Shown here: positions 2,425-47,545 of the stretch, piece after piece | Layout of the letters: each line of letters starts with the position of its first letter | How positions within the stretch are numbered: the stretch's first letter is position 1 | Source: Candidatus Latescibacterota bacterium | GTDB taxonomy: Bacteria > Latescibacterota > UBA2968 > UBA8231 | Reading direction: 5' to 3' | NCBI GenBank assembly: GCA_036336855.1 | Contig: JAYZFI010000014.1 | Span: forward strand, 44,734-108,733 | DNA length: 64,000 bases | Program-made: the position numbers and the translations under genes | Notes under the pieces: model-generated | What the model saw: only the letters and a program-made list of their open reading frames with translations | Database searches by the model: none | What the model was told of the DNA's origin: nothing

Positions 2425-3801
2425 ATGACTGATCCCCCCCGAAGATCATGGGGCCTGTACGGGCTTCTGCTGTTGGTGCTGAGCGTCGAGTTCGGATGCG
2501 CCGCCGCTTACACTCGGCTCATAAGCAGCACCCTGCGCCGTCTCGAGTACAGGGACTACGAGGGAGCCCTCGCTAAACTGGAGAAGAAGTCGGAAGAGAC
2601 TGATCGGCTACTCTACCGCCTAGAAAAGGGGCTCATTCTCCACTACGCCGGTGGGTGGAGCGCCTCGAACGGGCAGTTCGAACGTGCCGAACGTCTCATC
2701 GACAAGCGTTACACGCGCTCCGCCAGTCGGGAGATAGCCGCCTTACTGACCAACGACGCGATTCGCCCATACCGTGGGGAAGAGTTCGAGCGCACGCTCA
2801 TTCACTACTACCGAGCGATGAATTATTACAAACTGGGACTGAACACGGACGCCCTCGTAGAGTGCCGCAAGGCAAACCTGCGGCTGGCTGATTTCGCCGC
2901 GAAGGCGGAGTACGAACTCAGTTACAACAACGACGCTTTTCTGCAATATCTCACGGGGGCGTTCTACGAAGCGGAGGGCGAATGGAACGACGCTTACATT
3001 TCCTATCGTGACGCCATCAAGGGCTTTGCTGCGTACCGGATCAGCCTCGGAATGGAGTTCCCCGAGGCCGCCGCCGCCGATTTGCAGCGCTCGGCGGTGC
3101 GCCTGGGCTTTGACGAAGAATGGGACCAGCTGGCGGACCGCTTCGATCTGCCCTCGGCTAATCCTCCCGCTGAGCGGGCGAGCGTAATCGTCATTGCAGA
3201 GAGCGGCTTTATAGGTCGCAAGGTGAAGAGGGAAATCAGCGTTCCGATCCTCGAGGATGACGACATCCGCCACGTTTGGATGGTTTCCGACCGACTCGTG
3301 CATCGTTACCACTACGGGTATCACAGCGGCGAGGTGGACTACTGGCTGCGCATTGCCCTGCCGGAGTACCGCCCTCGACCCCGCCGTGTGCACGGCGTGC
3401 AGTTGCGCGCACGCGGCCGGAAAAGTCGCGGCTGGATGGTGGAGGATCTCGACGCCATCGCGCAGCGCAGTTTCGCAGAAAAGGAGAATGCCGTGCTCAC
3501 TCGCACCGCCGTCCGGGCACTGGCCAAGTACGTCGCAACCGAGCTCGCCGAAGAGAAAAGCGACATCCTCGGATTTCTGGTGAACCTCTTCGGGGCAGGT
3601 ACCGAAGCGGCGGACACACGCAGCTGGCAGTCCTTGCCGGCGACGATCTGGATGGCGAGAATGCAGATTCCGCCGGGAACGACCGACGTGGTTCTGGAGT
3701 TTCTAGATGCAGGCGGATTTGTCGTGGCCGAGCACTTGTTCCCTGCCGTCGAGGTAAGTGCCACCCGGCCTCTTTTCCTCAGCCACCGTAGCTTCCGTTA
3801 G
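2425..3801 (+). CDS. secreted/envelope hypothetical protein with a helical-repeat N-terminal half
   Basis: 458 aa. N-terminal hydrophobic signal-like segment (LYGLLLLVLSVEFGCAAA). Repeat-like helical region (YRLEKGLILHYAGGW..., YYRAMNYYKLGLNTDALVECRKANL). First gene of a four-gene co-directional secreted module. Confidence 0.55.
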   Translation: MTDPPRRSWGLYGLLLLVLSVEFGCAAAYTRLISSTLRRLEYRDYEGALAKLEKKSEETDRLLYRLEKGLILHYAGGWSASNGQFERAERLIDKRYTRSASREIAALLTNDAIRPYRGEEFERTLIHYYRAMNYYKLGLNTDALVECRKANLRLADFAAKAEYELSYNNDAFLQYLTGAFYEAEGEWNDAYISYRDAIKGFAAYRISLGMEFPEAAAADLQRSAVRLGFDEEWDQLADRFDLPSANPPAERASVIVIAESGFIGRKVKREISVPILEDDDIRHVWMVSDRLVHRYHYGYHSGEVDYWLRIALPEYRPRPRRVHGVQLRARGRKSRGWMVEDLDAIAQRSFAEKENAVLTRTAVRALAKYVATELAEEKSDILGFLVNLFGAGTEAADTRSWQSLPATIWMARMQIPPGTTDVVLEFLDAGGFVVAEHLFPAVEVSATRPLFLSHRSFR

Positions 3802-3846
3802 CTACGACAGGGGAAATCAGGGAGAGGACACGAAAATAAGGGAAAT

Positions 3847-4680
3847 ATGAAGCGACTTCCGATTCATCTGGCGTTGGCTGCGCTGCTCACAAGTGCCGTA
3901 GCCGGGGGTCAGGAGGTGAGCGATCCTCCCCAACCCCTGGAAGACAGACTCGTCTTCAACATCGTCGATTGGGAGGGCGGGGAACTGCCTCCGATCTACG
4001 AGCGATCCGTCCAGCTTCCTCTCGCCCTGGAAGAAGTACTCGAGCTCAGTAAGGCAGAGTTTAGTGACGAGGCGATTGTCGAGATGCTGGAACAACGGCG
4101 CTGCGCCTGCGATGCCTCCGTATCGTCTATTGTCCGCCTTAAGAAAGCGGGGGTCTCCGAGCCGGTGATTCAAGCCACTTCCCTGCACTCCATACGTCCC
4201 AATCGCCACGTGAATCTCGCCGTCCACCTAGATTTCGAGGGACGCGGACAGGCGACAGAGGTGTCGCGGCGATCGCGTCGGTCCTACCTCTACCTGATCA
4301 TCCCCGACGGCGATCGCGAGCGCGTGTTCTTCGGCAATCTCCAGGCCATCCTCGCGGGCCGCTGGCACCAGGACGCTCTGCTGGACCATACCGATCTGCT
4401 GTTGCCAAAGAAGACACGTCGCGTCTCCTTCACCGCCCGGGTACCGCTGAAGACGCACGGGATCCGCAAGGCCTTGGTGTTCACCTCGACCCGCCCCAAC
4501 ATTTACACTTCCGCCGACATTCCCGGCGCGGATCGCAGTGCCGCGCAGGAGTTCTCCTTCGATTATCCGGTTGCCTCCCTGCGACAGGACTGCTCTCTGC
4601 AAATTCTGCAGCGCCAGGATGCGCTGCTCGATGATCGCTGGCATCTCGAACGGTCCCACTTCGAGTGCGAATGGGACTGA
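3847..4680 (+). CDS. secreted hypothetical protein
   Basis: 277 aa. Clear Sec signal peptide (MKRLPIHLALAALLTSAVAGG). Purine-rich GGAAAT about 6 nt upstream of the start. No recognisable domain. Confidence 0.55.
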   Translation: MKRLPIHLALAALLTSAVAGGQEVSDPPQPLEDRLVFNIVDWEGGELPPIYERSVQLPLALEEVLELSKAEFSDEAIVEMLEQRRCACDASVSSIVRLKKAGVSEPVIQATSLHSIRPNRHVNLAVHLDFEGRGQATEVSRRSRRSYLYLIIPDGDRERVFFGNLQAILAGRWHQDALLDHTDLLLPKKTRRVSFTARVPLKTHGIRKALVFTSTRPNIYTSADIPGADRSAAQEFSFDYPVASLRQDCSLQILQRQDALLDDRWHLERSHFECEWD

Positions 4681-4695
4681 AGGATAGAGTTCAAC

Positions 4696-5343
4696 ATGAC
4701 CACAGAGGACAGTAACATGGCACGCAAACCCGCTGGCCGCCGTAGTGTAGGGCGTGTGGCCATGCTCTTCGGGTTGGTGGCGATGACGACGGTCGCTTGC
4801 GCCGGCAATAGAGCCTTCACCCGGGGCACCTACGAGGATCCGCAAGAGATCGCCATGCTGGACGACGACTGGAACCAGAACGACATGCAACTGGTGGCCA
4901 AGAAGATTGTCTCTTCACTGCAGCAGTGGATCGTCCGCGACGAGTTGGGGAGCAAGCCTGTGATTGTCGTGGAGACGCCGCGGAATCGTACGACCGAGCA
5001 CCTTGATCTCGACGCGTTATACGATCACGTGAAGACAGCGCTGATCCGCAGCGGTCAGTTCGCCTTTCTCGACAAGGCCGCGCGGCAGGAGATCGCCCAA
5101 GAATACGAATACCAGGGCTCGGGCTACGTGGATCCCAACCACGCTATTGGTCCGGGCAATCAGCGCGCTGCGGAATTCCTCCTCGGGTTGGAGATCACTT
5201 CCGAGGTGCAACAGGTAGGCAGCCGAAAGGTCATTTACTACAAGGCCACCTTCGAGCTCACCGACATCGAGACCACTGAGATTGTGTGGACGGACCAAAA
5301 GGAGATCCGCAAGGACTTCCGCAAGCGCAGCATCGGATTCTGA
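4696..5343 (+). CDS. LpoB-like outer-membrane lipoprotein (COG3417 / penicillin-binding-protein activator LpoB family)
   Basis: 215 aa. Signal plus probable lipobox (LVAMTTVAC|AGN). C-terminal domain aligns by eye with E. coli LpoB: VIVVETPRNRTTEHLDLDALYDHVKTALIRSGQFAFLD versus LLVDSVNNRTNGSLNAAEATETLRNALANNGKFTLVS, and YKATFELTDIETTEIVWTDQKEI versus LQMQLMLVQTGEIIWSGKG. Confidence 0.6.
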   Translation: MTTEDSNMARKPAGRRSVGRVAMLFGLVAMTTVACAGNRAFTRGTYEDPQEIAMLDDDWNQNDMQLVAKKIVSSLQQWIVRDELGSKPVIVVETPRNRTTEHLDLDALYDHVKTALIRSGQFAFLDKAARQEIAQEYEYQGSGYVDPNHAIGPGNQRAAEFLLGLEITSEVQQVGSRKVIYYKATFELTDIETTEIVWTDQKEIRKDFRKRSIGF

Positions 5344-5355
5344 GGGGAGAGGAAT

Positions 5356-5916
5356 ATGACACGTTGGACTGTAGCGTTGGTGTTGACCCTCCTCATCGCT
5401 TCCTCGGAGCAGGCAGAGCCCACCGCGGGGCGAACCGACGGACCGGAGGGCAGCGAGATCGGCACGGGGGGATACGCGAACTGGCGCACGCCGGGCTCGT
5501 CCTACGTGGAAGGATACTTCGGAGCAGCGGGGGTGGATGTCGAGGTCGACAATGGACCTAACAATTCCGAGACCGAGCTGCTATCGGGGGTCAATGGCGG
5601 CTACCTGATCGAAGATTGGCTCGCCTTCCAACTGGGATTCGGCCACATCGGTGGAGACCTCAATGTTAATCTGTTCACCGCAGGCATGCGCAATTCGGTG
5701 GAACTGGAACCCTTCAACTACTTCTTCAGCTTCGATGCCGAGCTTTACTCACCGGACGTTGGAGACAGTCACTTCGGAATCGTGCCAGGCGTGGGAGCGG
5801 AGATGGTGCTCAACAAGCACTTGCGCGTAGGTCTGCGCTTCCAGCACGACTTCATTTTCGCCGACAACACCATCGGTATCAACCGGTTCACGGCTCGCGT
5901 ACAGTTCAAATTTTAA
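5356..5916 (+). CDS. small outer-membrane beta-barrel protein (OmpW/OmpA-like)
   Basis: 186 aa. Signal peptide (ALVLTLLIASSEQA). Alternating hydrophobic beta-strand pattern, aromatic-rich. Terminal ...RVQFKF-COOH, with C-terminal Phe as in OMP sorting signals. Confidence 0.55.
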   Translation: MTRWTVALVLTLLIASSEQAEPTAGRTDGPEGSEIGTGGYANWRTPGSSYVEGYFGAAGVDVEVDNGPNNSETELLSGVNGGYLIEDWLAFQLGFGHIGGDLNVNLFTAGMRNSVELEPFNYFFSFDAELYSPDVGDSHFGIVPGVGAEMVLNKHLRVGLRFQHDFIFADNTIGINRFTARVQFKF

Positions 5917-6503
5917 CCGGCGCATGTCCGTACCATCTTCAGGAAGTAGTCGTGCACCTGGGTGTCATCACTGGATAGTTCCGGGTGGAAGGTAGCGACG
6001 AGGACGTTGTCCTGCCGTGCTATGACCGTGTCGCCCTCGCACTCGCCCAGGGCGAGCACATTCGCCCCTGTACGGACGATTCGCGGCGCCCGGATGAAGA
6101 CCATGGGAATGCGGGTGCCCTCTGCGCTGAACACGCCTTCACCTTCGAAGCTCTCGCGTTGCCGACCGTAACCGTTGCGTTCGACGGCGACGTCGATGAC
6201 GCTGAGACTGCGCTGTCGTGGGTTCAGAACCTCCGAAGCTAGAATAATGAGCCCAGCGCAGGTGCCGAACACGGCGGCACCTGATCGGACGAACTCACGC
6301 AGGGGATCCCAGAACTCGAAGACATCCATTAACTTAATCAGCGTGGTCGACTCGCCGCCCGGTATCACCAACCCGTTCAAGCCTGTCAGCTGCTTAGGCT
6401 GACGAACGACGCGCACCTCGACGCCACGTCGCCTCAGCACCTGACCGTGAGCGGCAAAGTCCCCCTGTAGTCCGAGGACGCCAACGATAGGGGTGTTGTG
6501 CAT
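5913..6503 (-). CDS. pdxT: pyridoxal 5'-phosphate synthase glutaminase subunit PdxT
   Basis: Start trimmed to MHNTPIVGVLGLQGDF. Motifs GLVIPGGESTT, GTCAGLI (catalytic Cys) and FHPE. Its stop codon overlaps the stop of the convergent OMP gene. Confidence 0.9.
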   Translation of the reverse strand: MHNTPIVGVLGLQGDFAAHGQVLRRRGVEVRVVRQPKQLTGLNGLVIPGGESTTLIKLMDVFEFWDPLREFVRSGAAVFGTCAGLIILASEVLNPRQRSLSVIDVAVERNGYGRQRESFEGEGVFSAEGTRIPMVFIRAPRIVRTGANVLALGECEGDTVIARQDNVLVATFHPELSSDDTQVHDYFLKMVRTCAG

Positions 6504-6522
6504 AGTGAGAAGCCCCAGGCGC

Positions 6523-6556
6523 AAAAAAGAAGGCGTCCCGCTACGGAGACGCCTTC
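6523..6556 (-). terminator. Rho-independent terminator on the minus strand between pdxS and pdxT
   Basis: Perfect 9-bp stem gaaggcgtc / gacgccttc (6529-6537 and 6548-6556) with a 10-nt loop, followed on the minus strand by a TTTTTT run (plus-strand AAAAAA at 6523-6528). Sits 36 nt downstream of the pdxS stop and about 20 nt upstream of the pdxT start. Confidence 0.5.
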
Positions 6557-6592
6557 TGGATTTGAGCTGGGTCGGCTGATGCCGCCGAAAAC

Positions 6593-7501
6593 CTACCAGC
6601 CGCGCGTCTGCAGTAGCTGACCCTCGTCCAAGGTCCCCATCTCAATGCCCGGCATGGCCTCGCCGAGTTGCTCAGAGACCTGCACTAGGATCTCGGGATC
6701 ATCGTAGTTCGTCGTCGCTTTGACGATAGCTTCAGCGCGGTTCTTGGGATCGCTGGACTTGAAGATCCCGGAGCCCACGAAGACTGCCTCGGCGCCCAGC
6801 TGCATCATGAGCGACGCGTCAGCGGGAGTGGCGATGCCGCCGGCAGCGAAGTTTGGCACGGGCAGATTGCCGCTCTCGGCGGCCATGCAGATGAGCTCAT
6901 AAGGAGCGCCTAGATCCTTGGCAGCAGTCATCAACTGATCGGATCGGAGCGTCGTAAGGCGCCGCATCTCGTCGGTGACCGCGCGCATGTGACGCACCGC
7001 CTCGACGATGTTGCCGGAACCCGCCTCGCCCTTGGTTCGAATCATGCAGGCGCCTTCACCGATGCGGCGCAGTGCCTCGCCGAGGTTGCGAGCTCCGCAG
7101 ACGAAGGGAACCTCGAAGGCGAACTTGTCGACGTGGAAGTGCTCGTCGGCGGGGGTGAGAACCTCGCTCTCGTCGATGTAGTCGACGCCGAGGGCCTGCA
7201 GCACCTGCGCCTCGGCGAAGTGGCCAATGCGGACCTTGGCCATTACCGGAATCGACACCGCTTCCATGATTTCGCGGATCTTGGTGATGCTGGCCATACG
7301 AGCGACACCGCCCTCTTTACGAATGTCGGCGGGGACACGCTCTAAGGCCATGACCGCGGTTGCACCCGCATCCTCGGCGATCTTGGACTGAGTGGCGTCG
7401 GTGACGTCCATGATGACGCCGCCCTTCAACATCTCCGCCAGGCCGGTCTTGAGACGAATGGTGCCGCTGATGTGCTTGCCGTTGCCCTCTTGGGGATCCA
7501 T
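6593..7501 (-). CDS. pdxS: pyridoxal 5'-phosphate synthase lyase subunit PdxS
   Basis: 302 aa, highly conserved PdxS sequence (GGVIMDV..., [13 protein letters not shown]..., [12 protein letters not shown]..., [15 protein letters not shown]...). Confidence 0.95.
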
Positions 7502-29069: not shown

Positions 29070-30317
29070 ATGAGCTTGAATCACGCGCCTTTCTTGATTC
29101 GGGAAATCCGGAGTCAACGGCTCAACGTGCCCTTCCACCCGCGCAGCGCTCACACCGTGGATGTGCGCGTGCCCACTTGGTCGGTTGTCGATCTCTATCG
29201 TGTGACGCTGAGCTCAGGAGCGGTGGGGATCGGCGAGACCATCGACAACTACACCTTCGGCACGATCAGCTGTGAGCGTGCCCAGGCCCTGGTCGGTCGC
29301 AACGCCATGGAGCTGTTGTGGGACGACAGCTTGGGTGCAGGCGTACAGATGGCGCTGTTCGACGCCGTGGGCAAGACGGCAGGAGTGCCCTGTCATCGTC
29401 TCATGGGAGTGCAGCACCGGGAAACATGCCCGGTTTCGTGGTGGGCTCAGGATATGCCGCCGGAGTTGTGGGCGGCGGAGGCGCGTAGCGCCGTGGAGCA
29501 CGGCTTCACCACTATGAAGGTGAAGGCGCGTCCCTGGTTTGACATTGACGCCCAGCTGGCCGCGGTGTCCGACGCCGTTCCCGACTATTTCCGCCTCGAC
29601 GCTGACTTCAATGGACTGCTGCTCGGAGTCGACCACGCCGCCCACATCATCGGATCCCTGGAAGAGAAGTATCCCGTACTGGCGATTGTGGAATCGCCGA
29701 TTCCGCAGGAAGACGTTGCCGGCAACGCCCTGCTGCGGAGCAAGGTTCGCAGTCCAATCGCCATGCACTTCGGCAATCCGCCCGCGATGACAGCGATTCG
29801 CGGGGGTGTGTGCGACGGCTTCGTAATCAGCGGTGGCGCGGGTCGGGTGATGAGTCAGGGGACGCTGGCCGAACACGCGAGCATGCCCTTCTGGCTGCAA
29901 TTGGTGGGTACGGGGCTCACGACAATCTGGAGTTGCCACCTGGGCTCGGTGCTGAAGCAAGCGCGCTGGCCAGCCATTCCCGGTGTCAACATCTACGAGC
30001 ACACTCTGGTTTCTCTCGAGTTCTCGGGAGGGCATCTACGTGTACCCAAAGGCCCTGGGCTGGGCGTGGAACTCGACGAGGAGGCTATCGCTCGCTTCGA
30101 GGTAGCGGCAGATTTCCAGAAGCAACTGCCAAGAGAGATCCACACGATTCATTGGCCCGACGGCCGCCAGGATCATTACCCGGACGGCAGCTATCGTCAG
30201 GACTTTCTCGAGGGTAAACTACATCCTGGGTTCCTCCCCGGCATCCACACTGATCGAGTCCTCGACAACGGCAGTGCCGAGTTCGACAAGCACTGGCGAG
30301 AGCTGTTCGCTAGGTGA
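29070..30317 (+). CDS. enolase-superfamily enzyme (mandelate racemase / muconate lactonizing enzyme subgroup)
   Basis: 415 aa. KxK (TTMKVK), metal ligands (LDADFNG, ESPIPQED) and capping domain. Stop overlaps the GT-C start. Confidence 0.75.
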   Translation: MSLNHAPFLIREIRSQRLNVPFHPRSAHTVDVRVPTWSVVDLYRVTLSSGAVGIGETIDNYTFGTISCERAQALVGRNAMELLWDDSLGAGVQMALFDAVGKTAGVPCHRLMGVQHRETCPVSWWAQDMPPELWAAEARSAVEHGFTTMKVKARPWFDIDAQLAAVSDAVPDYFRLDADFNGLLLGVDHAAHIIGSLEEKYPVLAIVESPIPQEDVAGNALLRSKVRSPIAMHFGNPPAMTAIRGGVCDGFVISGGAGRVMSQGTLAEHASMPFWLQLVGTGLTTIWSCHLGSVLKQARWPAIPGVNIYEHTLVSLEFSGGHLRVPKGPGLGVELDEEAIARFEVAADFQKQLPREIHTIHWPDGRQDHYPDGSYRQDFLEGKLHPGFLPGIHTDRVLDNGSAEFDKHWRELFAR

Positions 30318-32728
30318 ACCGCATGGCCGTCGGCGGCGTGCTGCTGCTCGCCTTTCTATTGCGAGTCTGGGGCCTGCTGTCGGGGAATCTTGTCCCCCAC
30401 CCCGACGAGATCTTTATGGTCATCTACCCGCTGGGCCTATTCAGCGGCGACCTCAATCCCCACCACTTCCACTACCCCAACTTCCACTTCTACGAGCTCG
30501 GCCTCGTCTACGGTCTGCACTTCATCGTGCAGTACTTATTCGGAGAGGGGCGCTCCCTGATCGATTGGGCGGCACATCACTTCTTCTGGGGTGCCGAGTC
30601 CATGATGGATGTGGCTCGCCTGATCGGAGTTGCTTACTCGATGGGAACGGTGGCATTAGCGGGATTGCTGGCGCGGGAGCTGGCAACCTGGCGGGGCCAT
30701 TCGGGCAGCGCTGAAAGGTGCGACATTGGCCAGACAGCGGTAGCCACCTTCCTGGCGATGCTACTGATGGCAGTGAATGTTCTGCACGTTCGGCAGTCGC
30801 CGATCGCCTCAGTGGACGTGCCTCTTGCGTTCTGGTTCGGCATGGCTACTTGGGGAGGCTTGCGGCTGCTCACCAGGCACGAGGTGCGTGACTATCTGAT
30901 CGCCGGAACACTGGTGGGACTCTCCGCGGCTTGCAAGTACCCCGGCGTGATGTCATGTGCTGCGGTGATGACTGCCCACCTGATTGCAAGGCGACGTGTC
31001 CTGGACAGCCGTCTCTGGCTGGCAGGCCTGGCATCGATCGTCACTTTCTTAGCGCTCTCTCCCTATATCGCTCTCGACTTCGAGACCTTCAGGGCTCATT
31101 TCCTGCATCAGATCGTGCATGTGGAGGAGGGGCGCGACTTCATCCCAGCGCCCTTCTATCACCACCTGTGGATCAGCCTGCGCTTGGGATCAGGCCACCT
31201 GGTCTGGGTGGTTTCCCTTGCCGCATTCGGAGTCGCGCTCTGGGAACGAAGATCGGCTCACCTGGCCGTGGTGGCACCGATCGTCTGCGGCTATGCTATG
31301 GTCAGTTGGGGAGAGCTTGTCTTTTTGCGCTACGCGTTGCCCCTCCTGGCTCTGCAGGCCGCGCTTTCCGCGGATCTGGTGGCTCGTTTTCTCTCGTGGG
31401 TTCCCGTCCGTACCCCGCAGCTGAAGTGGGCCCCTTACGTTTGTGCCCTCTTGCTCACGGCGGAACCGCTGCACGAATCCCTGCACACGGTACGCTTGCA
31501 GTCTATGGCTGACACTCGCCGACAGGCGCGGGCGGATCTGACCGAGATAATTCCCGATGGCAGCGTCTGCTGCAACTTCGGCGGATGGGCGGGCGATGTA
31601 CCGCTCTGGACGTACGAGGAGCTGTGGTGGCGCTCCGCGCGGTTCGTGTCGCGCTTCGGCATGCAACAGCTCGCTGACGCGATTCCGGATTTGACGGCGA
31701 ACCGGCCGGACGAACCCTTCGTAAGCTACGCCCTGCAGGGGCGCAATCGCCATCTCAGCGAAGGATCGATGGAGCTGTTGCACGGTCGCGAATGTCGCTA
31801 CGTGCTGATGCATCGACATTCGCTGGTATATTCCGCCGTCGATTCCGGCTTCGTGCCCCAACTCGAGCGCATCGCCGAACGTTTTGCCGTCTGGGGACCG
31901 CCGATCGCTGAAGATTCTGCCCACTACGATCCAATGGACGGCTACTATTTGCCTTTCGACGGGGGCAGAAGTGTGGCGCGGACGGGGCCGACGATTGAGG
32001 CGTGGAGGGTTCGTGGTTACGAACGACGCTCGAATCGGCCCGACAATCCGTTTTCGCAGGCCTTCGCGGTGTGGGCGGCTGTGCTCATGCGCGAGGGCAG
32101 ACCCAAGGATGCGCGCGTCGCCCTGGAGGCCGCGCGAGTTTTGGAGCCCAAGAGCCCGTACGTTGCCATGTTTCTTTCCGCCTGGGAAGGCGAGAACGGC
32201 GATCTCGCACAAGCGTTGGAGATGGCCCAGTACGTTGCAGAGGGTGCGCCCTGGCTGACTGGGGCTAAGACCCACTACGGGCGCCTGCTCCGTCAAGCCG
32301 GACGGCTCGCCGAGGCGGAACGTCAGTTACTCCAGGCGAGAGGTCACAATCCCATGCAGGGCGAAGTTTGGCACGAGCTGGCAATGTGCTATTTCGAGAG
32401 TGGCGCCTATGCGGAAGCGGCGGAGGCTTGGACGCGAGCCATTGAATTGAGACCGACGCGGGCAGACTACTCCTTCAACCTTGCCTACACCTACCTGGAG
32501 TATCTCGACGCGCCCGAGCGGGCGGTGGCACCGCTTCGCACCGCGATGGCGAAAGGTCACGATGTCACTGACGCGCAGATCAAGCTCGCACAGGCTTATC
32601 TGAAGACAGGAAATCGAGCCGAGGCGATGCGGTGGTACGAGGAAGCCCTCCTGGGCAATCCGGACGAGGAGCAGAAGTCAGACCTTGCAACGGTCCTTTT
32701 GCAGCTAAATAGGGAAAGCTCGTTGTAG
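30314..32728 (+). CDS. ArnT/PMT-like GT-C family membrane glycosyltransferase fused to a C-terminal TPR domain (paralog 1)
   Basis: 804 aa. About 11-13 TM helices. First-loop HPDE motif (LVPHPDEIFMVIYP) as in the ArnT LPDETRY and PMT DE motif. C-terminal third shows TPR repeats (WHELAMCYFESGAYAEAAEAWTRAIEL...). Confidence 0.75.
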   Translation: MNRMAVGGVLLLAFLLRVWGLLSGNLVPHPDEIFMVIYPLGLFSGDLNPHHFHYPNFHFYELGLVYGLHFIVQYLFGEGRSLIDWAAHHFFWGAESMMDVARLIGVAYSMGTVALAGLLARELATWRGHSGSAERCDIGQTAVATFLAMLLMAVNVLHVRQSPIASVDVPLAFWFGMATWGGLRLLTRHEVRDYLIAGTLVGLSAACKYPGVMSCAAVMTAHLIARRRVLDSRLWLAGLASIVTFLALSPYIALDFETFRAHFLHQIVHVEEGRDFIPAPFYHHLWISLRLGSGHLVWVVSLAAFGVALWERRSAHLAVVAPIVCGYAMVSWGELVFLRYALPLLALQAALSADLVARFLSWVPVRTPQLKWAPYVCALLLTAEPLHESLHTVRLQSMADTRRQARADLTEIIPDGSVCCNFGGWAGDVPLWTYEELWWRSARFVSRFGMQQLADAIPDLTANRPDEPFVSYALQGRNRHLSEGSMELLHGRECRYVLMHRHSLVYSAVDSGFVPQLERIAERFAVWGPPIAEDSAHYDPMDGYYLPFDGGRSVARTGPTIEAWRVRGYERRSNRPDNPFSQAFAVWAAVLMREGRPKDARVALEAARVLEPKSPYVAMFLSAWEGENGDLAQALEMAQYVAEGAPWLTGAKTHYGRLLRQAGRLAEAERQLLQARGHNPMQGEVWHELAMCYFESGAYAEAAEAWTRAIELRPTRADYSFNLAYTYLEYLDAPERAVAPLRTAMAKGHDVTDAQIKLAQAYLKTGNRAEAMRWYEEALLGNPDEEQKSDLATVLLQLNRESSL

Positions 32729-41115: not shown

Positions 41116-42618
41116 ATGACGACGGCCAATAGGCCCAACCTCATTTTTATCATCACCGACCAACAGCGTGCAGATACGATCCGCGCCTGGGGCCATTCCC
41201 ACATGGTGACACCGGCCATGGACAAGTTGTGCAAGGATGGGCGCTCTTTCCGGCAGGCGTTTTGCCCGGGAGCGACCTGCGTCGCCTCCCGCGCTGCTAT
41301 CTTCACCGGCATGTACCCGCACACGACGGGAGTGTACAGCTTCGATGCCTGGGCGGGGCATCGAAGCTGGGTGGAAGATCTCGCCGACGCCGGCTATCGC
41401 TGCATTAACATTGGCAAGATGCACATCACTCCACAGAGCGAGAACGGAGGATTCCATGAGCGGATCATCGTCGAAAATCCGACCAATAAGGAATTGATCA
41501 ACGGTGGCGCCGACGACGATTGGGGGCGTTACCTGACTCATCACGGTGAGTCCAGACCCAACGACCGCCACGAAACTGATTCCGACTGGATCGACAAGGT
41601 GCAAGGCGTGCCGTGGCATCTGGAGGAGCGTTTCCACAGCGATGTGTTCATTGGCGACGCGGCAGTTTCGTGGATCCGTAGTCATCGGGGCGACGACCCG
41701 CTGTTTCTCCAGATCGGGTTCGCCGGACCCCACGAGCCCTGGGACCCACTACCGCGACATCTCGAGCTCTACCACGGAGTGCAGCTACCTGATCCGGTCT
41801 TTCGGGAGAGCGAGCTCGACAGCAAGCCGCCGCAGCACCAAGCGCATCACCGCACTCATGCCGAGGCCGATCACGAATCCCGGATCGACGTCCAGAATAC
41901 GTCCCCGGAGCAGATCGATCACATGCGTCGCCACTATTATGCGAAGATCACCACCGTCGATGAGCAGATCGGCCGAGTGTTGGAAGCACTGGACGAGCGC
42001 GGCTGGAGGGACAACAGCCTCCTCGTGTTCTGCTCTGATCACGGCGAGCTGCTGGGAGATCACAACCTCGCGTACAAATGGCTGATGTACGATGCCATCA
42101 CTCGAGTTCCCCTCGTCGTTTGTGATCGTCGCGAGGGTGCGGATTCGCAAGGCGGCGGCGTCTGCGACGAACTGGTCTCCCTGATCGATCTGGGACCGAC
42201 CTTTCTCGAAGCAGCGGGGATCGACCGGCCGGATTATCTGGAGGGGTGTTCTCTGCTGCCCTGCTCGAACAGCGGTAGATACTCCCGAGATCGCGTGTAT
42301 GCGGAAGACAACTACCAAATCATGATGCGCACCCACGATCTCAAGATCGTGTATTACATCGGCCAGGAGCTTGGCGAGCTCTACAACCTGAGTGAGGATC
42401 CAGACGAGCTTTGGAATCTTTGGGAAGACCCGGCGCATCGAGAGACGCGCGATCGCCTGCTACGGGAGTTGCTCGACTGGTTGGCATCGAGCACATACTG
42501 GAACGCAGGTTATCGCCGCGACCGCAGCGCGAACTACCGGATGCGCTGGCCCGCCCCGGATGACCCCTACCTCCATGGGCGCTACTCGCGACCACGGAAG
42601 AGGCAGGCTGATCTGTGA
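41116..42618 (+). CDS. formylglycine-dependent sulfatase, no signal peptide (predicted cytoplasmic)
   Basis: 500 aa. Starts directly with the sulfatase fold (NLIFIITDQQRAD). FGly motif CVASRAAIFTGM, GKMHI. No N-terminal hydrophobic segment. Stop overlaps the start of the next gene. Confidence 0.9.
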   Translation: MTTANRPNLIFIITDQQRADTIRAWGHSHMVTPAMDKLCKDGRSFRQAFCPGATCVASRAAIFTGMYPHTTGVYSFDAWAGHRSWVEDLADAGYRCINIGKMHITPQSENGGFHERIIVENPTNKELINGGADDDWGRYLTHHGESRPNDRHETDSDWIDKVQGVPWHLEERFHSDVFIGDAAVSWIRSHRGDDPLFLQIGFAGPHEPWDPLPRHLELYHGVQLPDPVFRESELDSKPPQHQAHHRTHAEADHESRIDVQNTSPEQIDHMRRHYYAKITTVDEQIGRVLEALDERGWRDNSLLVFCSDHGELLGDHNLAYKWLMYDAITRVPLVVCDRREGADSQGGGVCDELVSLIDLGPTFLEAAGIDRPDYLEGCSLLPCSNSGRYSRDRVYAEDNYQIMMRTHDLKIVYYIGQELGELYNLSEDPDELWNLWEDPAHRETRDRLLRELLDWLASSTYWNAGYRRDRSANYRMRWPAPDDPYLHGRYSRPRKRQADL

Positions 42619-45056
42619 AAGCCACCCGGATCCTGCTGCTCGTCATCATAGTGGCAGGGTTCTCACTGCGTGCAGCAGGCTTCACTCGCGGCGACACGGA
42701 TTTCGTACTGCCAGAGGATCGCGCGAAGGGATACGAATCGTCGTTCCACAGCTTTCATCCCGATGAGCTAACGCTGATCGAGTCGGCGTTGCGACCAATC
42801 GACCTCCTTAATCCTCCGTTCACGGTCTACGGAGCGCTCCCGGTGTACATGCTACGTGGCGTGCTGCTCACGGTCAGCGCCATCGGCGGATGGAACAAGT
42901 TAGAGTTGGAGACACCGGATTCAAGGCGTCGGATCTACTTTACAACACGCGCCGTCGCTCTGCTGTTCAGTCTAGGCGTATTGGCGCTGACGGCGATGAT
43001 CGCGCGTCGGTTGGCCGGTGAGTGGGGGGCATTGGTTGCTGTGTTCGCCGTCGCTTTTGCCCCCGGGGCGATTCAGCAAGCCCACTATTACATCGTTGAC
43101 GGGTTGTTCAGTCTTACATCGCTGGCGACTGTCTGGGCCATCTCTACTGTTCGCCGGGATGATCGTTGGGGGCGCTTCTGTGTTATCGGCGTCATGATCG
43201 CCATCACCATGGCGATCCGACAGAACGGCGGTCTTCTCGGTCTGTTACTCTTTGTCCAACTTGCGATTCAGGAATCATCGCCCGTGTGGCGGCAAACGAT
43301 AGCCACGATACGCTTTCGAGGCTTGTGGATAGCGGCCGGGGTCTCAGCCCTGCTATTTCTCTGTATGCATCCGTTCGTGCTTATTCGGCCGGAGATCCAA
43401 ATCGCGAAAACCGGCTATGGCAGCTTCGGCAGCGCCCTCGACACGGCCAGCCTGGCGCTGCTGCAGCCCTGGACCTTGGCGGATGTGCACACGAGCGCAT
43501 TCATCGACCACTGGTTTGGGATGATGCCCGATGTTACCGGTTGGCCCTTGACAATCGTGTTCCCTGCCACACTGGTCTGGGCCTTGTGGAAGGGGGGACC
43601 CACGGCCCGAATCATCGCCGTTTGGTGTGTTCTTTACTTCTTACCTATCGGTTTTCTCAAGGCGCGTGCAGTGCGGCACACAATCCCGCTGCTGGCACCG
43701 CTAGCGATCCTGCTGGCACTCGCTGCCCGCCATCTGTGGCCCACCATGTCCAAGAAGATCAGCATCGCGGCCATCGGTGCGGCAGCTCATTTGGTGGTAT
43801 TCGGTTGTGCTTTTACTCGGATTTATACAATTGAGGACAGCAGGCTGCAGGCGGCCAGATGGCTACAGGCGAACGCGCCGCCTGGCTCTCGAATCGGTGT
43901 CGAGGGCGGAGCGTACACGATGTCACGCTTAGTCAGCAATCGCGAGCACCAAACGCGGGGTCTGGAAACGCCGTGGGTGTTTTACTCTGGGCCTTTCATG
44001 CTGTGCGAAGATCGCGCACGTTTACTCCTTCGTCGCCTGTTGCCAACAGATTATGTTGCCGTAGTAGATGCCAATCGGCACCTCCAATACCACAAAGTTC
44101 CCGAGATCTATCCGGTAGTTGCTGATTTCTACAACCGTCTTCTCGCAGGACAATTAGGTTACGATGTAGTAGCGATCTACAAAGTGGAACCGAGGTTAGC
44201 GGGGGTACACTTTGACGAGACGTCGGCGGAGCCTTCCTACCTGGGCTACGATCACCCCACCGTATACTTGTTGCAACGGAGGTCACAGCCACTGCTTGCC
44301 GCCAATCTGTGGGCGAATGAGGTATCTATCGGGCCGCACTGTCCCGACGAGTCTTTGAGACGACTCAGTCGTAGGCTGGTAGCGGGCGATTTCGAAGCGG
44401 TGATCTCGGAGATGCCAGAGCATCAAGCAGCATATCCCTGGAACCTGCTCGGCGATCGTCTCGAGGCTGAGGCGGGGTGGCGACAAAGCCCAAAGGGAGA
44501 CCGCCCGCCCTTCACCCCCGGTGAAACCGGCGGACGACTACAGCACGTGCGCAACCCGGCGATGGTCCATCTTTCCTATGCCTCCGCTGCAACCTCGGTT
44601 GCACGACTTGGCCTGCCGGGGTTGGCCGTTGCCACTCTCAAGGACGGCGTTGGGACCCGGACCTTGCGCTCTCGTGACTTGGTCACACAGGCGGAATCTT
44701 ATATGGAGACCGCCATCATTCTTGGCGAACTGGGTCATGATGAGGAAGAGGTGCAAGCCGCGCGACTTTCTCTGGAAGTCACGCCCACTACTGCTGTGGT
44801 AAACGCACTGGCGGGTATCGCTGCCAGGCGTGACGACAGCGAGGCGGTTCGTCGGCATCTGGAGCACTCGCTTTTACTTGACGCGAAGCAAGCGGACGTT
44901 CACGTCGGTTTGGCCGAGGTCTACCTGAAATCGATGAACAACCCGGAAACCGCGCTGCGGCATGTCGAGATCGCCCTTGGCATCGATTCCGGGCTCGCGG
45001 AAGAGGCGGAGCCGCTGCGAGCCCGAGCCCTGCAGGAGTTGGGTAGCGGTCCTTGA
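42615..45056 (+). CDS. ArnT/PMT-like GT-C membrane glycosyltransferase with C-terminal TPR domain (paralog 2)
   Basis: 813 aa. TM-rich N-terminal two-thirds with FHSFHPDE loop motif. C-terminal TPR-like helices (VHVGLAEVYLKSMNNPETALRHVEIAL). GTGA/ATGA overlaps on both sides. Confidence 0.7.
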   Translation: MKATRILLLVIIVAGFSLRAAGFTRGDTDFVLPEDRAKGYESSFHSFHPDELTLIESALRPIDLLNPPFTVYGALPVYMLRGVLLTVSAIGGWNKLELETPDSRRRIYFTTRAVALLFSLGVLALTAMIARRLAGEWGALVAVFAVAFAPGAIQQAHYYIVDGLFSLTSLATVWAISTVRRDDRWGRFCVIGVMIAITMAIRQNGGLLGLLLFVQLAIQESSPVWRQTIATIRFRGLWIAAGVSALLFLCMHPFVLIRPEIQIAKTGYGSFGSALDTASLALLQPWTLADVHTSAFIDHWFGMMPDVTGWPLTIVFPATLVWALWKGGPTARIIAVWCVLYFLPIGFLKARAVRHTIPLLAPLAILLALAARHLWPTMSKKISIAAIGAAAHLVVFGCAFTRIYTIEDSRLQAARWLQANAPPGSRIGVEGGAYTMSRLVSNREHQTRGLETPWVFYSGPFMLCEDRARLLLRRLLPTDYVAVVDANRHLQYHKVPEIYPVVADFYNRLLAGQLGYDVVAIYKVEPRLAGVHFDETSAEPSYLGYDHPTVYLLQRRSQPLLAANLWANEVSIGPHCPDESLRRLSRRLVAGDFEAVISEMPEHQAAYPWNLLGDRLEAEAGWRQSPKGDRPPFTPGETGGRLQHVRNPAMVHLSYASAATSVARLGLPGLAVATLKDGVGTRTLRSRDLVTQAESYMETAIILGELGHDEEEVQAARLSLEVTPTTAVVNALAGIAARRDDSEAVRRHLEHSLLLDAKQADVHVGLAEVYLKSMNNPETALRHVEIALGIDSGLAEEAEPLRARALQELGSGP

Positions 45057-47545
45057 GTTCACACTGGCGCCTGGCTCTGCTCAGTGTCCTGCTCCTTGCC
45101 ACGGGTCTTCGCCTGGTCGGCTGGCAGCGAGGCGATACGGATTTTCTCAAGCCCGAGCAGGCGAGAAGCGGTCTGCAGCGCGCTTTCCACTCTTTCCATC
45201 CTGACGAGAACACTCTAATCAGAGCGGGGGCGCAGATGAGCTCCCCTCTCGATCCTCCACTCACCGCGTACGGCCTTCTGCCAATCTACCTCTCGCGCAT
45301 GGCGACCGATCTTGGCGGCTGGCTCACCGGCGTGTCCAGCTACACAGGCAGTCTTGAAAGCCATCGTCAGGATGTGTTTTCCGTCAGGCTGCTGTCGGTC
45401 GCTGTCTCCATCGCGGCGCTACTCGCGCTCTATACCATTGGCCGACGACACTTTGGTGCACCGTCGGGTGTTCTGGCAACTGCACTCGCCGCAGCGCCCC
45501 CCCTCTTCCTACAGACCGCCCACTTTTACACAGTCGATGGGGTTTTTGCGTTACTCTGCCTGGCAACGATCGGATCCGTCCTGCGAGTCGATGAGCGCTC
45601 TGGGCCCCTCTGCTACACACTAACAGGTGTTCTCGTGGGTCTGACAGCGGCTGTTCGGCTCAACGGCCTGTCTCTGGGAATCCTTCTCGTGGCGACGCAC
45701 CTATGCCGGCGCACCCCTAACTCGCGGGCATTCGGCCGCGCCTTGTTGCAGCCGTCGCTTTGGCTTGCCGGAGCTGCCACCGTTGTGACCTTGCTTGCGT
45801 TGATGCCGTATGTCGCCGTCAGCCCCGAGCTGTTGTGGCAAGAGAACAACACCAACGACTTCAGTTATTCCGTAGGCGTGGCGGATGGACGGATCTTGCG
45901 GCCATGGTCCCTGGCAGACACACACACACCGCCATATCTGCACTACCTGACCAATCTTCTTCCGCTCAGCGTTGGATGGCCGCTGGCTATTGCTTTCATC
46001 GTGGCTCTGCCATCAGCTGTGGCGACAGGAGGTCGGAGTCGCTGGTTGCTGCTGGCGGCAACGGCGTTACTGTTCGTGCCTGTCGGGGCGTTACACACAA
46101 AGCACGTCCGTTATCTGCTGCCGGTATTGGCTCCTCTCACACTCTTGACTGCCGATATGTTTGTACGTCTGCAGACGGGACAGGTAGCTATCCGGCGTCT
46201 GACAGCCAGAGTGTTGCTGATCGGCGTTCTCTCTGCAACCCTCGTGGAGGGAATCGCCTTCGCGCACATCTACACCGTTGAGGATGCCCGTCTACAAGCG
46301 GCCCGCTGGATTCAGGGGGAAGTGCCGTGGGGGACTCCCATCGGTGTCGAAACGGGCGGCTTTTCCATGAGGGGACAGGTGAGCGAGGAGGTCTACCCCG
46401 TACGGACACTGAACACGAGCTCGATCTTCTCCACACGCGGACATCTAACCTGTCAATCCGTGGCATCCTACATGGGAGCACGATTGCAGTCTGCACAGTA
46501 CGTTGCTCTCCTTGACGTCAATCGCTATCAGCAGTACGTGGGAGCGCCGGTGATCTATCCTGGACTGGCACGGTTTTATCGGGACTTTATCGCCGGAGAG
46601 CTGGGGTTTTCACTGGTGCGCACATACAAGCGCAATCCTCAGTTGCTTGGTCTCAAGATGAGCGACGATGGTGCCGAAGCTTCCTTCCTCGGCTACGATC
46701 ATCCCAGAGTGCGGATCATGGCTAAGGATCCAGGCTTCGAAGCTCGGTTTGTGGCCTGGGAGGGCGCCCTTCCCTCGCACGAACATTGTGGAGACGAAGT
46801 CGTCTTCGATCTCGTTCACCACATCAAGAGCGGATCCTATGAAGAAGGTTTGCGGCTGGCCCTGCAAAATTCAGCGCGTCACCCGCAGAGCCTCATCACA
46901 TTCATAACCGCCCATCTGTACGGTCTGCTCGGTGAGACGGAGCTGCAACAGCAATTCCTAGATCGATGGGCTGACACCTACACGGACAAATCCCTGAGCG
47001 CGTTCCTGCTACCCTGGGCGAATTCCAGTTCTCTTGTCTTGGCCGGTCTACCAGAACTCGGCGTACAGGCATTGAGATTCGGGTGGCGAAAAAGGGGCGC
47101 GTTCTCGGACGACAAGGCGAACATGGCTGCCTCGTACAGGCATGTTAGTGAGCTCTTGCTGAGTGTGGAAGAGGGTACCCTCGCTGAAGAGGCGACTCTG
47201 ATGGCGCTCGATATCAATCCTAGCGTCGAAGGTTATAACCGAGCTGCGGAAATGCTACTGTCTCGGGGAGAATACGGGCACGCGGTGGCTCTCTGGGAAA
47301 GATCTCTTCAGGATCAGGAGCAGATCGGAGTCCGGTGGCAGCTGGGCAGAACTGCGGAGGAGCGGGGCGACTGGGAGCGCGCTGTTCGTCACTTGCTCCA
47401 TGCCGTATTCCTAGACGATCAGATATCGTCAGACCGTCGAACTCTTGAGCTCGATAGGCTCACGCGTATCGCTGAGCACAATGGCCTAGCCGATCTGGCG
47501 CGAAAAGTCCGAGCGCAGCACGAGTCCAGGCAGGCACCCCTGTAA
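45053..47545 (+). CDS. ArnT/PMT-like GT-C membrane glycosyltransferase with C-terminal TPR domain (paralog 3)
   Basis: 830 aa, TTG start overlapping the preceding stop. Collinear with paralog 2 (GWQRGDTDF, FHSFHPDE, YTVDG, IYTVEDARLQAARW). TPR tail. Confidence 0.7.
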   Translation: MSSHWRLALLSVLLLATGLRLVGWQRGDTDFLKPEQARSGLQRAFHSFHPDENTLIRAGAQMSSPLDPPLTAYGLLPIYLSRMATDLGGWLTGVSSYTGSLESHRQDVFSVRLLSVAVSIAALLALYTIGRRHFGAPSGVLATALAAAPPLFLQTAHFYTVDGVFALLCLATIGSVLRVDERSGPLCYTLTGVLVGLTAAVRLNGLSLGILLVATHLCRRTPNSRAFGRALLQPSLWLAGAATVVTLLALMPYVAVSPELLWQENNTNDFSYSVGVADGRILRPWSLADTHTPPYLHYLTNLLPLSVGWPLAIAFIVALPSAVATGGRSRWLLLAATALLFVPVGALHTKHVRYLLPVLAPLTLLTADMFVRLQTGQVAIRRLTARVLLIGVLSATLVEGIAFAHIYTVEDARLQAARWIQGEVPWGTPIGVETGGFSMRGQVSEEVYPVRTLNTSSIFSTRGHLTCQSVASYMGARLQSAQYVALLDVNRYQQYVGAPVIYPGLARFYRDFIAGELGFSLVRTYKRNPQLLGLKMSDDGAEASFLGYDHPRVRIMAKDPGFEARFVAWEGALPSHEHCGDEVVFDLVHHIKSGSYEEGLRLALQNSARHPQSLITFITAHLYGLLGETELQQQFLDRWADTYTDKSLSAFLLPWANSSSLVLAGLPELGVQALRFGWRKRGAFSDDKANMAASYRHVSELLLSVEEGTLAEEATLMALDINPSVEGYNRAAEMLLSRGEYGHAVALWERSLQDQEQIGVRWQLGRTAEERGDWERAVRHLLHAVFLDDQISSDRRTLELDRLTRIAEHNGLADLARKVRAQHESRQAPL

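Follow-up and report, generated by a model that had tools for sequence, protein, structure and literature searches.

Near the beginning of a 64,000-nt stretch of DNA (the window) from a metagenome-assembled genome (MAG) of Candidatus Latescibacterota (GCA_036336855.1, contig JAYZFI010000014.1), four open reading frames (ORF1 to ORF4, positions 2425-5916) make up an operon for exported cell-envelope proteins. An initial annotation of this DNA had described four co-directional genes with gaps of 45, 15 and 12 nt, all carrying export signals; the coordinates and strand were confirmed, and sequences and alignments bear out the signals (a lipobox Cys in ORF1 and ORF3, a Sec signal in ORF2 and a signal peptide in ORF4). 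All four products are exported, ORF1 and ORF3 as lipoproteins, ORF2 as a disulfide-rich protein of the periplasm and ORF4 as a small outer-membrane (OM) β-barrel. What that annotation missed, and what forms the main point of our analysis, is that ORF1, a lipoprotein with a tetratricopeptide repeat (TPR)-like half, belongs to a family that is the constant cross-phylum partner of LpoB-family genes, represented here by ORF3.

Neither promoter-like nor terminator-like sites were found on the + strand within the module, the guanine-plus-cytosine (GC) content stays at ~0.58-0.63 along it with no break in composition, and ORF4 has a strong Shine-Dalgarno sequence (GGAGAGGA precedes this gene). Taken with the close spacing, these features are compatible with a single operon. 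ORF3 has two candidate starts, 4696 and 4717, both with an AGGA-type Shine-Dalgarno sequence, and ORF4 overlaps the convergently transcribed pdxT at its stop codon.

A scan with one genome per species yielded 80 loci with ORF1 homologues (42-62% identity). All are in Latescibacterota-type MAGs, despite inconsistent genome titles (Latescibacterota, Gemmatimonadetes/Gemmatimonadaceae, 'Gemmatimonas phototrophica', Planctomycetota and Handelsmanbacteria); being filled by Latescibacterota, the scan is uninformative on taxonomic breadth. Hidden Markov model searches of all ORFs found the order ORF1>ORF2>ORF3>ORF4, on the same strand, in 74/74 loci whose contigs reach far enough; the remaining six end after ORF2. 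The flanks are less constant: pdxT/pdxS lie downstream of the module in 33 of the 80 loci, spoU/GFO-oxidoreductase genes lie upstream in about 60 (spoU in 61), and the 12 most divergent loci keep the module intact while sharing none of the flanking genes of the window. This fixed four-gene order amid changing flanks indicates that the four genes act as a selected unit, in agreement with the conserved envelope operon that had been proposed.

Table 1. Genes, domains and conserved segments of the four-gene module (positions in the window)
Feature	Position	Strand	Description
ORF1	2425..3801	+	458-aa lipoprotein; NCBI VX733_03055 'hypothetical'
ORF1 TPR-like helical domain	2443..3141	+	Residues 7-239; DSSP of AlphaFold2 model; Foldseek TPR matches, ~220 aligned columns
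ORF1 signature motif A-D-T-R-S-W	3610..3627	+	Residues 396-401, within TEAADTRSWxSLP (residues 393-405)
ORF2	3847..4680	+	277-aa secreted protein; NCBI VX733_03060 'hypothetical'
ORF3	4696..5343	+	215-aa LpoB-family lipoprotein; NCBI 'penicillin-binding protein activator LpoB'
ORF3 short conserved linker	4801..4869	+	Residues 36-58, ...RAFTRGxYxDPxEIxMLDDxW
ORF3 LpoB globular domain, PF13036	4882..5307	+	Residues 63-204; Pfam match and family profile vs PDB
ORF3 C-terminal basic/hydrophobic tail	5311..5340	+	K..FRKRSIGF-COOH
ORF4	5356..5916	+	186-aa small OM β-barrel; NCBI VX733_03070 'hypothetical'
ORF4 near-invariant peptide after signal	5425..5475	+	Residues 24-40, xGRTDGPEGSExGxGGY

The N-terminal hydrophobic segment of ORF1 ends in a G-C lipobox whose Cys25 is invariant among 27 homologues. 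In an AlphaFold2 model (pLDDT 82, pTM 0.82) the N-terminal half is helical and the C-terminal half combines β-structure with long helices. Foldseek matched this model solely to TPR proteins (KLC, Rap, MamA and BamD), in keeping with the helical-repeat protein described initially; these generic matches mask the C-terminal domain. The signature motif of the family lies in the C-terminal half, where D397, R399, W401, L404 and P405 vary little or not at all, including in members from Aeromonas, Azospirillum and a metagenome clade; the Marinobacter member has the variant ANTRADIRYWAGLP. Scans of ORF1 against Pfam and NCBIfam gave zero matches, and a sequence search against the PDB returned nothing meaningful. 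Counted as clusters of 50% identity, the matches of an exhaustive profile search numbered 6,131 at E≤1e-3 and 1,727 at ≤1e-30. ORF1 is a member of a very large family that has no Pfam model.

ORF3 matches PF13036 over the whole profile (positions 1-147 of 147; E=6.7e-34, 117.3 bits against a cutoff of 22.3) and scores 120.6 bits against TIGR02722, narrowly above the cutoff of 110.55; the E. coli and Aeromonas proteins score 218 bits. Its lipobox reads TVAC (...MTTVAC-AGN), with Cys35 invariant in 22 sequences and in 10 diverse family members. A profile built from 12 diverse members of the ORF3 family, with no enterobacterial sequence among them, reached the LpoB structures in the PDB (4Q6L, 2e-11; 4Q6Z, 9e-11; 2MII, 3e-10). 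The next matches were 5T11 and 5T10 (E=0.015-0.026), which are PelC-like structures (PMC13631591). LpoB was not reached in the PDB by the single ORF3 sequence or by a narrow clade profile. The annotation had further claimed a 'block by block' match to E. coli LpoB. This stands for the family-wide motifs DWN, NRT, GKF and EIxW, which both proteins share, but overall the two sequences match poorly (E=3e-6 in a single comparison, with 20% identity across 158 aa; in hhalign, the narrow clade profile gave a probability of 33%). By these profile matches ORF3 is a true LpoB-family lipoprotein. NCBI holds an identical sequence, labelled LpoB, in a Candidatus Latescibacterota MAG, so the match to LpoB is not in itself a discovery. 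Among the matches listed, the 120 closest homologues are 65-79% identical to ORF3.

Two segments outside the globular domain are also strongly conserved. In the linker between the lipidated Cys and the domain, F41, T42, G44, Y46, D48, P49, I52, M54, L55 and D57 are invariant, making it as conserved as the domain itself. Counted from Cys to domain, 64 Latescibacterota proteins have a linker of 22-23 aa and a second clade has one of 18-20, compared with ~59 Pro-rich residues in E. coli. At the C terminus, K[KR]SIG[F/L/I] is present in 74/74 Latescibacterota-type genomes, and the second clade has an RS.L.[F/Y] ending. A tail also occurs in the LpoB-family proteins of Aeromonas, Azospirillum and Marinobacter, and E. 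coli LpoB ends before it. In a ten-member alignment, all partner-linked LpoB-family members carry a C-terminal extension of basic residues followed by a hydrophobic or aromatic terminus.

Beyond the phylum, we located the pair by tblastn against PLSDB records and by a scan seeded with more distant ORF1-family members, which gave a metagenome clade of 80 loci. Genes of the ORF1 and LpoB families adjoin in at least five gene orders in unrelated bacteria: the Latescibacterota module, Aeromonas, an Azospirillum plasmid, a Marinobacter plasmid and the metagenome clade, where the pair is flanked by LPP20-type genes. In Aeromonas caviae the order is hinT-ORF1 homologue-ycfL-lpoB-thiK (a thiK-like gene). 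The ORF1 homologue has a lipobox and the motif ERADTRSWLTLP, shows 26% identity (E=5e-18) and scores 150 bits against the ORF1 profile; YcfL matches PF07233 (94.7 bits), and the LpoB-family gene scores 176.7 bits against PF13036 and is 36.6% identical to ORF3 (E=1e-30). This cluster is the E. coli locus hinT-ycfL-lpoB-thiK-nagZ, in which an ORF1 homologue is not present, with an extra ORF1-family gene. The A. caviae record (NZ_AP026896.1, gene table of 18 features) is titled 'plasmid pKAM479_3' and, at 4.94 Mb, is evidently a chromosome. It has LpoB-family matches at two places; because the second lies elsewhere in the record, Aeromonas may have two LpoB-family paralogues.

Plasmid p1 of Azospirillum sp. 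TSH100 carries an ORF1 homologue followed by genes annotated "YcfL family protein", "lpoB" and DUF6844. On pHP-187 of Marinobacter adhaerens, an LpoB-like gene is followed by an ORF1-family gene that spans the origin of the record (416 aa, 74.9 bits, E=2.5e-25), and this in turn by YcfL; a 457-aa gene upstream of the LpoB-like gene was considered as the ORF1 homologue and proved unrelated. Like the Latescibacterota module, these proteobacterial clusters combine an ORF1-family protein (ADTRSW motif, lipobox, TPR half) with a short-linker LpoB that has an aromatic C-terminal tail, in tight same-strand linkage. They differ in having YcfL/DUF1425 for ORF2, in lacking the ORF4 barrel and in their variable gene order.

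In 72 of the 80 loci of the metagenome clade the two genes share a strand and the LpoB-family gene directly precedes the ORF1-family gene, the other eight loci being without upstream sequence; the order is LPP20-LpoB-ORF1 homologue-LPP20. No homologues of YcfL, ORF2 or ORF4 were found in these loci. The flanking genes encode two paralogous LPP20-type lipoproteins of 189 aa and ~336 aa (for example at 3771-4340 and 6417-7427 of locus L150). They recall the H. pylori lpp20-hp1457 neighbourhood, and DUF6844 of Azospirillum occupies an equivalent downstream position. The third component varies between YcfL/DUF1425, LPP20-type lipoproteins, DUF6844 and, in Latescibacterota, ORF2 together with ORF4. 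The constant element across these arrangements is the pair of ORF1-family and LpoB-family genes, and the third and fourth components are interchangeable. We found no functional study of YcfL/DUF1425/TIGR02722 in the literature.

A related synteny has been described in Campylobacterota. In C. jejuni, cj0089 (encoding a TPR lipoprotein), cj0090 and cj0091 form an operon, with Cj0089 in the inner-membrane fraction and Cj0091 in the OM fraction (PMC3100323). HP0018 of H. pylori is a homologue of Cj0089, and in enterohepatic Helicobacter species its gene shows synteny with hp1457, which encodes an LpoB homologue and is orthologous to cj0091 (PMC11394524); hp1457 in turn adjoins lpp20 (PMC12029599). 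H. pylori cells deleted for hp0018 hypervesiculate and lose their helical form, and co-immunoprecipitation brought down MltD and AmiA (PMC11394524). Judged by size (453 and 469 aa), TPR content, lipoprotein nature and neighbour, cj0089-cj0091 and hp0018-hp1457 look like the same pairing. As in the module, a TPR lipoprotein of ~450-470 aa accompanies an LpoB-family lipoprotein of ~207 aa, and a small third gene separates the two; all of the products are envelope proteins, and a role in cell-envelope maintenance has been proposed (PMC3100323, PMC11394524). The Latescibacterota module differs in that its middle gene encodes an unrelated 277-aa protein, a fourth gene (the OM barrel) has been added, and the host is free-living and belongs to an uncultured phylum. 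The synteny of TPR lipoprotein and LpoB was thus already noted in Campylobacterota, and what is new here is its cross-phylum reach over five gene orders. Also new are the observations that the differences of ORF3 from the enterobacterial activator in linker and tail run in step with loss of the partner gene, and that the Latescibacterota form swaps YcfL for the clade-specific ORF2 and adds an OM barrel.

LpoB is a textbook case of how the OM governs cell-wall synthesis, and most descriptions treat it as a recent invention of the enterobacteria. The initial annotation, which called it a gammaproteobacterial innovation, was right for the PBP1b-activating enterobacterial form, since LpoB and its docking domain UB2H were limited to enterobacteria at a 100-bit cutoff (Typas 2010, PMC3060616), but not for the family itself, which is broad. 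Its further suggestion, that an LpoB-like lipoprotein well outside the enterics points to a broader family of OM-tethered regulators, is supported. LpoB of E. coli and Salmonella (YcfM; PDB 4Q6Z, 4Q6L and 2MII) resembles ORF3 in being a PF13036/TIGR02722 lipoprotein with one α/β globular domain, and the Aeromonas cluster links the two loci positionally. It differs in its Pro-rich linker, which is disordered, in the missing C-terminal tail and in the missing ORF1-family partner gene. Aeromonas LpoB scores 125 bits against ORF3 and 61 bits against E. coli LpoB; because it is closer to ORF3, the enterobacterial protein looks fast-evolving and derived. On these sequence comparisons, enterobacterial LpoB seems to be a derived branch in which the TPR partner and the tail were lost and a long disordered linker arose.

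The residues through which E. coli LpoB contacts PBP1b, a class A penicillin-binding protein (PBP), are loop 1 (110-117), S157, A164, Y178, S180 and E201 (bioRxiv 10.1101/2024.12.13.628440). ORF3 keeps the NRT motif and an equivalent of E201 (E195); its loop 1 reads TEHLD where that of E. coli reads NGSLN, Y178 aligns with the invariant Gly164, and the region of S157, A164 and S180 (loop 2) is not reliably alignable. Because of the short conserved linker, the conserved tail and the apparent lack of most contact residues, the name 'PBP1b activator' is an unproven transfer for ORF3, which probably does not activate PBP1b through UB2H as the E. coli protein does.

The two remaining components of the module are more restricted. 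ORF2 has a cleavable Sec-type signal without Cys and four invariant Cys residues (86, 88, 249 and 274). Its AlphaFold2 model (pLDDT 72.6) contains two short helical hairpins (residues 61-111) and a β-sandwich (121-276), for which Foldseek gave only weak, uninterpretable β-sandwich matches (fimbrial, TssJ; TM≤0.25). A Pfam scan of 27 members gave zero matches, and the 175 detectable homologues all appear to come from one clade. A relationship to YcfL/DUF1425 was considered and rejected (hhalign probability 0.7%, no PF07233 match); ORF2 is a clade-specific protein in the position that YcfL occupies elsewhere. Residues 42-103, in the region of the two helical hairpins and with the invariant C-x-C (Cys86 and Cys88), match the designed toroid repeats of dTor_12x31L (PDB 5BYO; phmmer, E=1.7e-6). 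This is probably a similarity of idealised helical hairpins or of composition rather than homology.

ORF4 consists of a signal peptide, a conserved peptide and a barrel of ~145 residues with an invariant C-terminal Phe. Its own match to PF13505 (OMP_b-brl) is 25.4 bits, below the gathering score of 28.7, but each of 21 family members reaches E≤0.01 with this model (best 2.4e-9), as befits the small β-barrel ending in Phe that had been described. By these matches ORF4 is a small OM β-barrel. Within the conserved peptide, 21 sequences with overall identities of 29-62% share G25, R26, T27, D28, G29, E34, G36, G38, G39 and Y40 without exception. The Gly/Glu-rich GRTDGPEGSEYGKGGY stands at the mature N terminus of the barrel, and the N-terminal peptide may be a docking peptide.

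Other features of the window lie outside the module. A 123-aa cyclophilin-like gene (PF04126-type; 1964-2335, +) directly precedes ORF1 in the same direction; because only 30/80 of the related loci carry it, it is probably not part of the module. On the other side, pdxT (SNO glutaminase) and pdxS (SOR_SNZ) occupy 5913-7501 on the - strand and converge on the module, with a 4-nt overlap between the pdxT stop region and the ORF4 stop; a strong terminator-like hairpin (6557-6528) lies between pdxS and pdxT. Farther downstream are three large genes for PMT_2 membrane glycosyltransferases (PF13231, GT-C/ArnT-like; 30314-32728, 42615-45056 and 45053-47545, all +), the first with a C-terminal TPR array and the last two adjoining. 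In H. pylori the PMT_2 protein HP1235 is among the co-immunoprecipitation partners of HP0018 (PMC11394524).

We give slightly better than even chances to a reading in which the four genes specify one envelope complex, the Latescibacterota version of an ancient two-lipoprotein core of ORF1 and ORF3, with a role in peptidoglycan. We are highly confident of the architectural part of this reading and hold the peptidoglycan role with much less confidence. In such a complex, ORF1 and ORF3 would bind each other, and the TPR groove of ORF1 would accept a conserved peptide, which could be the 22-aa linker of ORF3, its K-R-S-I-G-F tail or the GRTDGPEGSE..GGY peptide of ORF4. By analogy with LptD for LptE and PelB for PelC, ORF4 would anchor or dock the LpoB-fold lipoprotein at the OM, and ORF2 may serve as a disulfide-bonded, clade-specific periplasmic adaptor in the place of YcfL. 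The complex might then link the OM with the remodelling of peptidoglycan as the regulator of a synthase or hydrolase, a role suggested by the function of E. coli LpoB and by the cell-shape and hypervesiculation phenotype of the H. pylori hp0018 mutant.

Several points weigh against this interpretation. We infer all of its protein-protein contacts, and the kinship of ORF1 with Cj0089 and HP0018 is drawn from size, lipoprotein and TPR nature and a shared neighbour. The link to peptidoglycan comes from distant relatives, the co-immunoprecipitation partners of HP0018 being unconfirmed, and the published phenotype of Cj0091 concerns host-cell adhesion rather than the cell wall (PMC3100323). The correlation between tail and partner reflects one independent loss, in the enterics. 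In addition, ORF3 lies above the TIGR02722 equivalog cutoff, if narrowly, leaving a PBP-activating role possible; a class A PBP was not found among the ten largest remaining ORFs scanned in the window.

That last role is the one implied by the NCBI annotation: ORF3 would be a functional LpoB, an OM lipoprotein that crosses the sacculus to activate a class A PBP, and ORF1, ORF2 and ORF4 would be envelope proteins with an accessory part or none. In its favour, ORF3 exceeds the cutoff of TIGR02722, a model of the 'equivalog' class, the PF13036 match spans the full domain, the family profile matches LpoB crystal structures, and the NRT loop and E195 are retained as counterparts of E. coli loop 1 and E201. 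We nevertheless consider this explanation unlikely. ORF3 barely clears a model on which the E. coli and Aeromonas proteins score far higher, and its linker is conserved and 22-23 aa long, in place of a long disordered spacer, where LpoB has been argued to need to extend across the peptidoglycan to reach UB2H (Typas 2010, PMC3060616). The E. coli contact positions seem not to be conserved, with Gly in place of Y178 and an unreliable alignment around S157, A164 and S180; UB2H is reported as confined to enterics (PMC3060616); and the phylum-wide linkage to three other genes would be left unexplained.

A very improbable alternative is that the module works at the OM in export or insertion, in the way of PelC/PelB, CsgG or GNA1162, with a ring of LpoB-fold lipoproteins under a barrel and a TPR scaffold. 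Lipoproteins with an α/β core, such as those resembling PelC, LptE and CsgG, dock with barrels or form rings (PMC13631591). The PelC-like 5T11 and 5T10 follow LpoB among the PDB matches, ORF3 and ORF4 adjoin in 74/74 genomes, and PelC/PelB, LptE/LptD and CsgG offer a parallel architecture, in which a small α/β OM lipoprotein is encoded beside an OM β-barrel and a TPR protein. The likeness is one of analogy, not membership, as family-level homology is lacking. None of the four proteins matched DUF799, DUF4810, CsgG or PelC in Pfam, and for want of any such match at E≤1 the GNA1162/DUF799/DUF4810/CsgG alternative raised initially is rejected; a sub-threshold CsgG match (0.012) was seen with Aeromonas LpoB only. 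Moreover, the OmpA/OMP_b-brl-type barrel of ORF4 is much smaller and, going by its size, not wide enough to export a polymer, genes for glycosyltransferases, amyloids or substrates are not conserved beside the module, and ORF4 is absent from all other versions of the pair. Quite improbable, too, is a surface-exposed or adhesive lipoprotein complex, with ORF3 as a Cj0091-like adhesin or Lpp20-like antigen, ORF4 aiding its display and no role in wall synthesis. It would fit the cj0091 mutant, in which adherence to INT407 cells is reduced and colonisation of chicks is poor (PMC3100323), and the LPP20-type lipoproteins that flank the pair in one clade, Lpp20 being shed in vesicles (PMC12029599). 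The C. jejuni adhesion defect could, however, be secondary to an envelope defect. The identity of 65-79% among the close homologues of ORF3 would mean purifying selection of a strength unusual for an adhesin on the surface of free-living environmental bacteria. That the module is universal in the phylum, and that the pair also occurs in Azospirillum, Marinobacter and Aeromonas, which are free-living, suggests a housekeeping role in the envelope.

The interpretation as one envelope complex can be extended, at somewhat below even chances, to an ancient cross-phylum envelope machine made of the ORF1 family and a tailed, short-linker LpoB. It would range over Latescibacterota, Alpha- and Gammaproteobacteria and probably Campylobacterota, with enterobacterial LpoB as a recent offshoot and ORF2 and ORF4 as components recruited in Latescibacterota. 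The whole might be a tether across the envelope through which peptidoglycan enzymes or vesiculation are regulated.

For the Latescibacterota window, the operon is an ordinary, well-conserved housekeeping envelope operon. More broadly, our findings favour the view that the LpoB fold and family are old and widespread, that the protein is better conserved outside the enterics than within them, and that it is almost always encoded together with a large family of TPR lipoproteins that lacks a Pfam model. Should the pair be one machine, the label 'PBP activator LpoB' that automated annotation gives outside the enterics probably overstates function, and the ancestral job of the pair, maybe the coupling of OM and peptidoglycan together with the control of vesiculation that the hp0018 mutant points to, becomes a well-defined, testable question.

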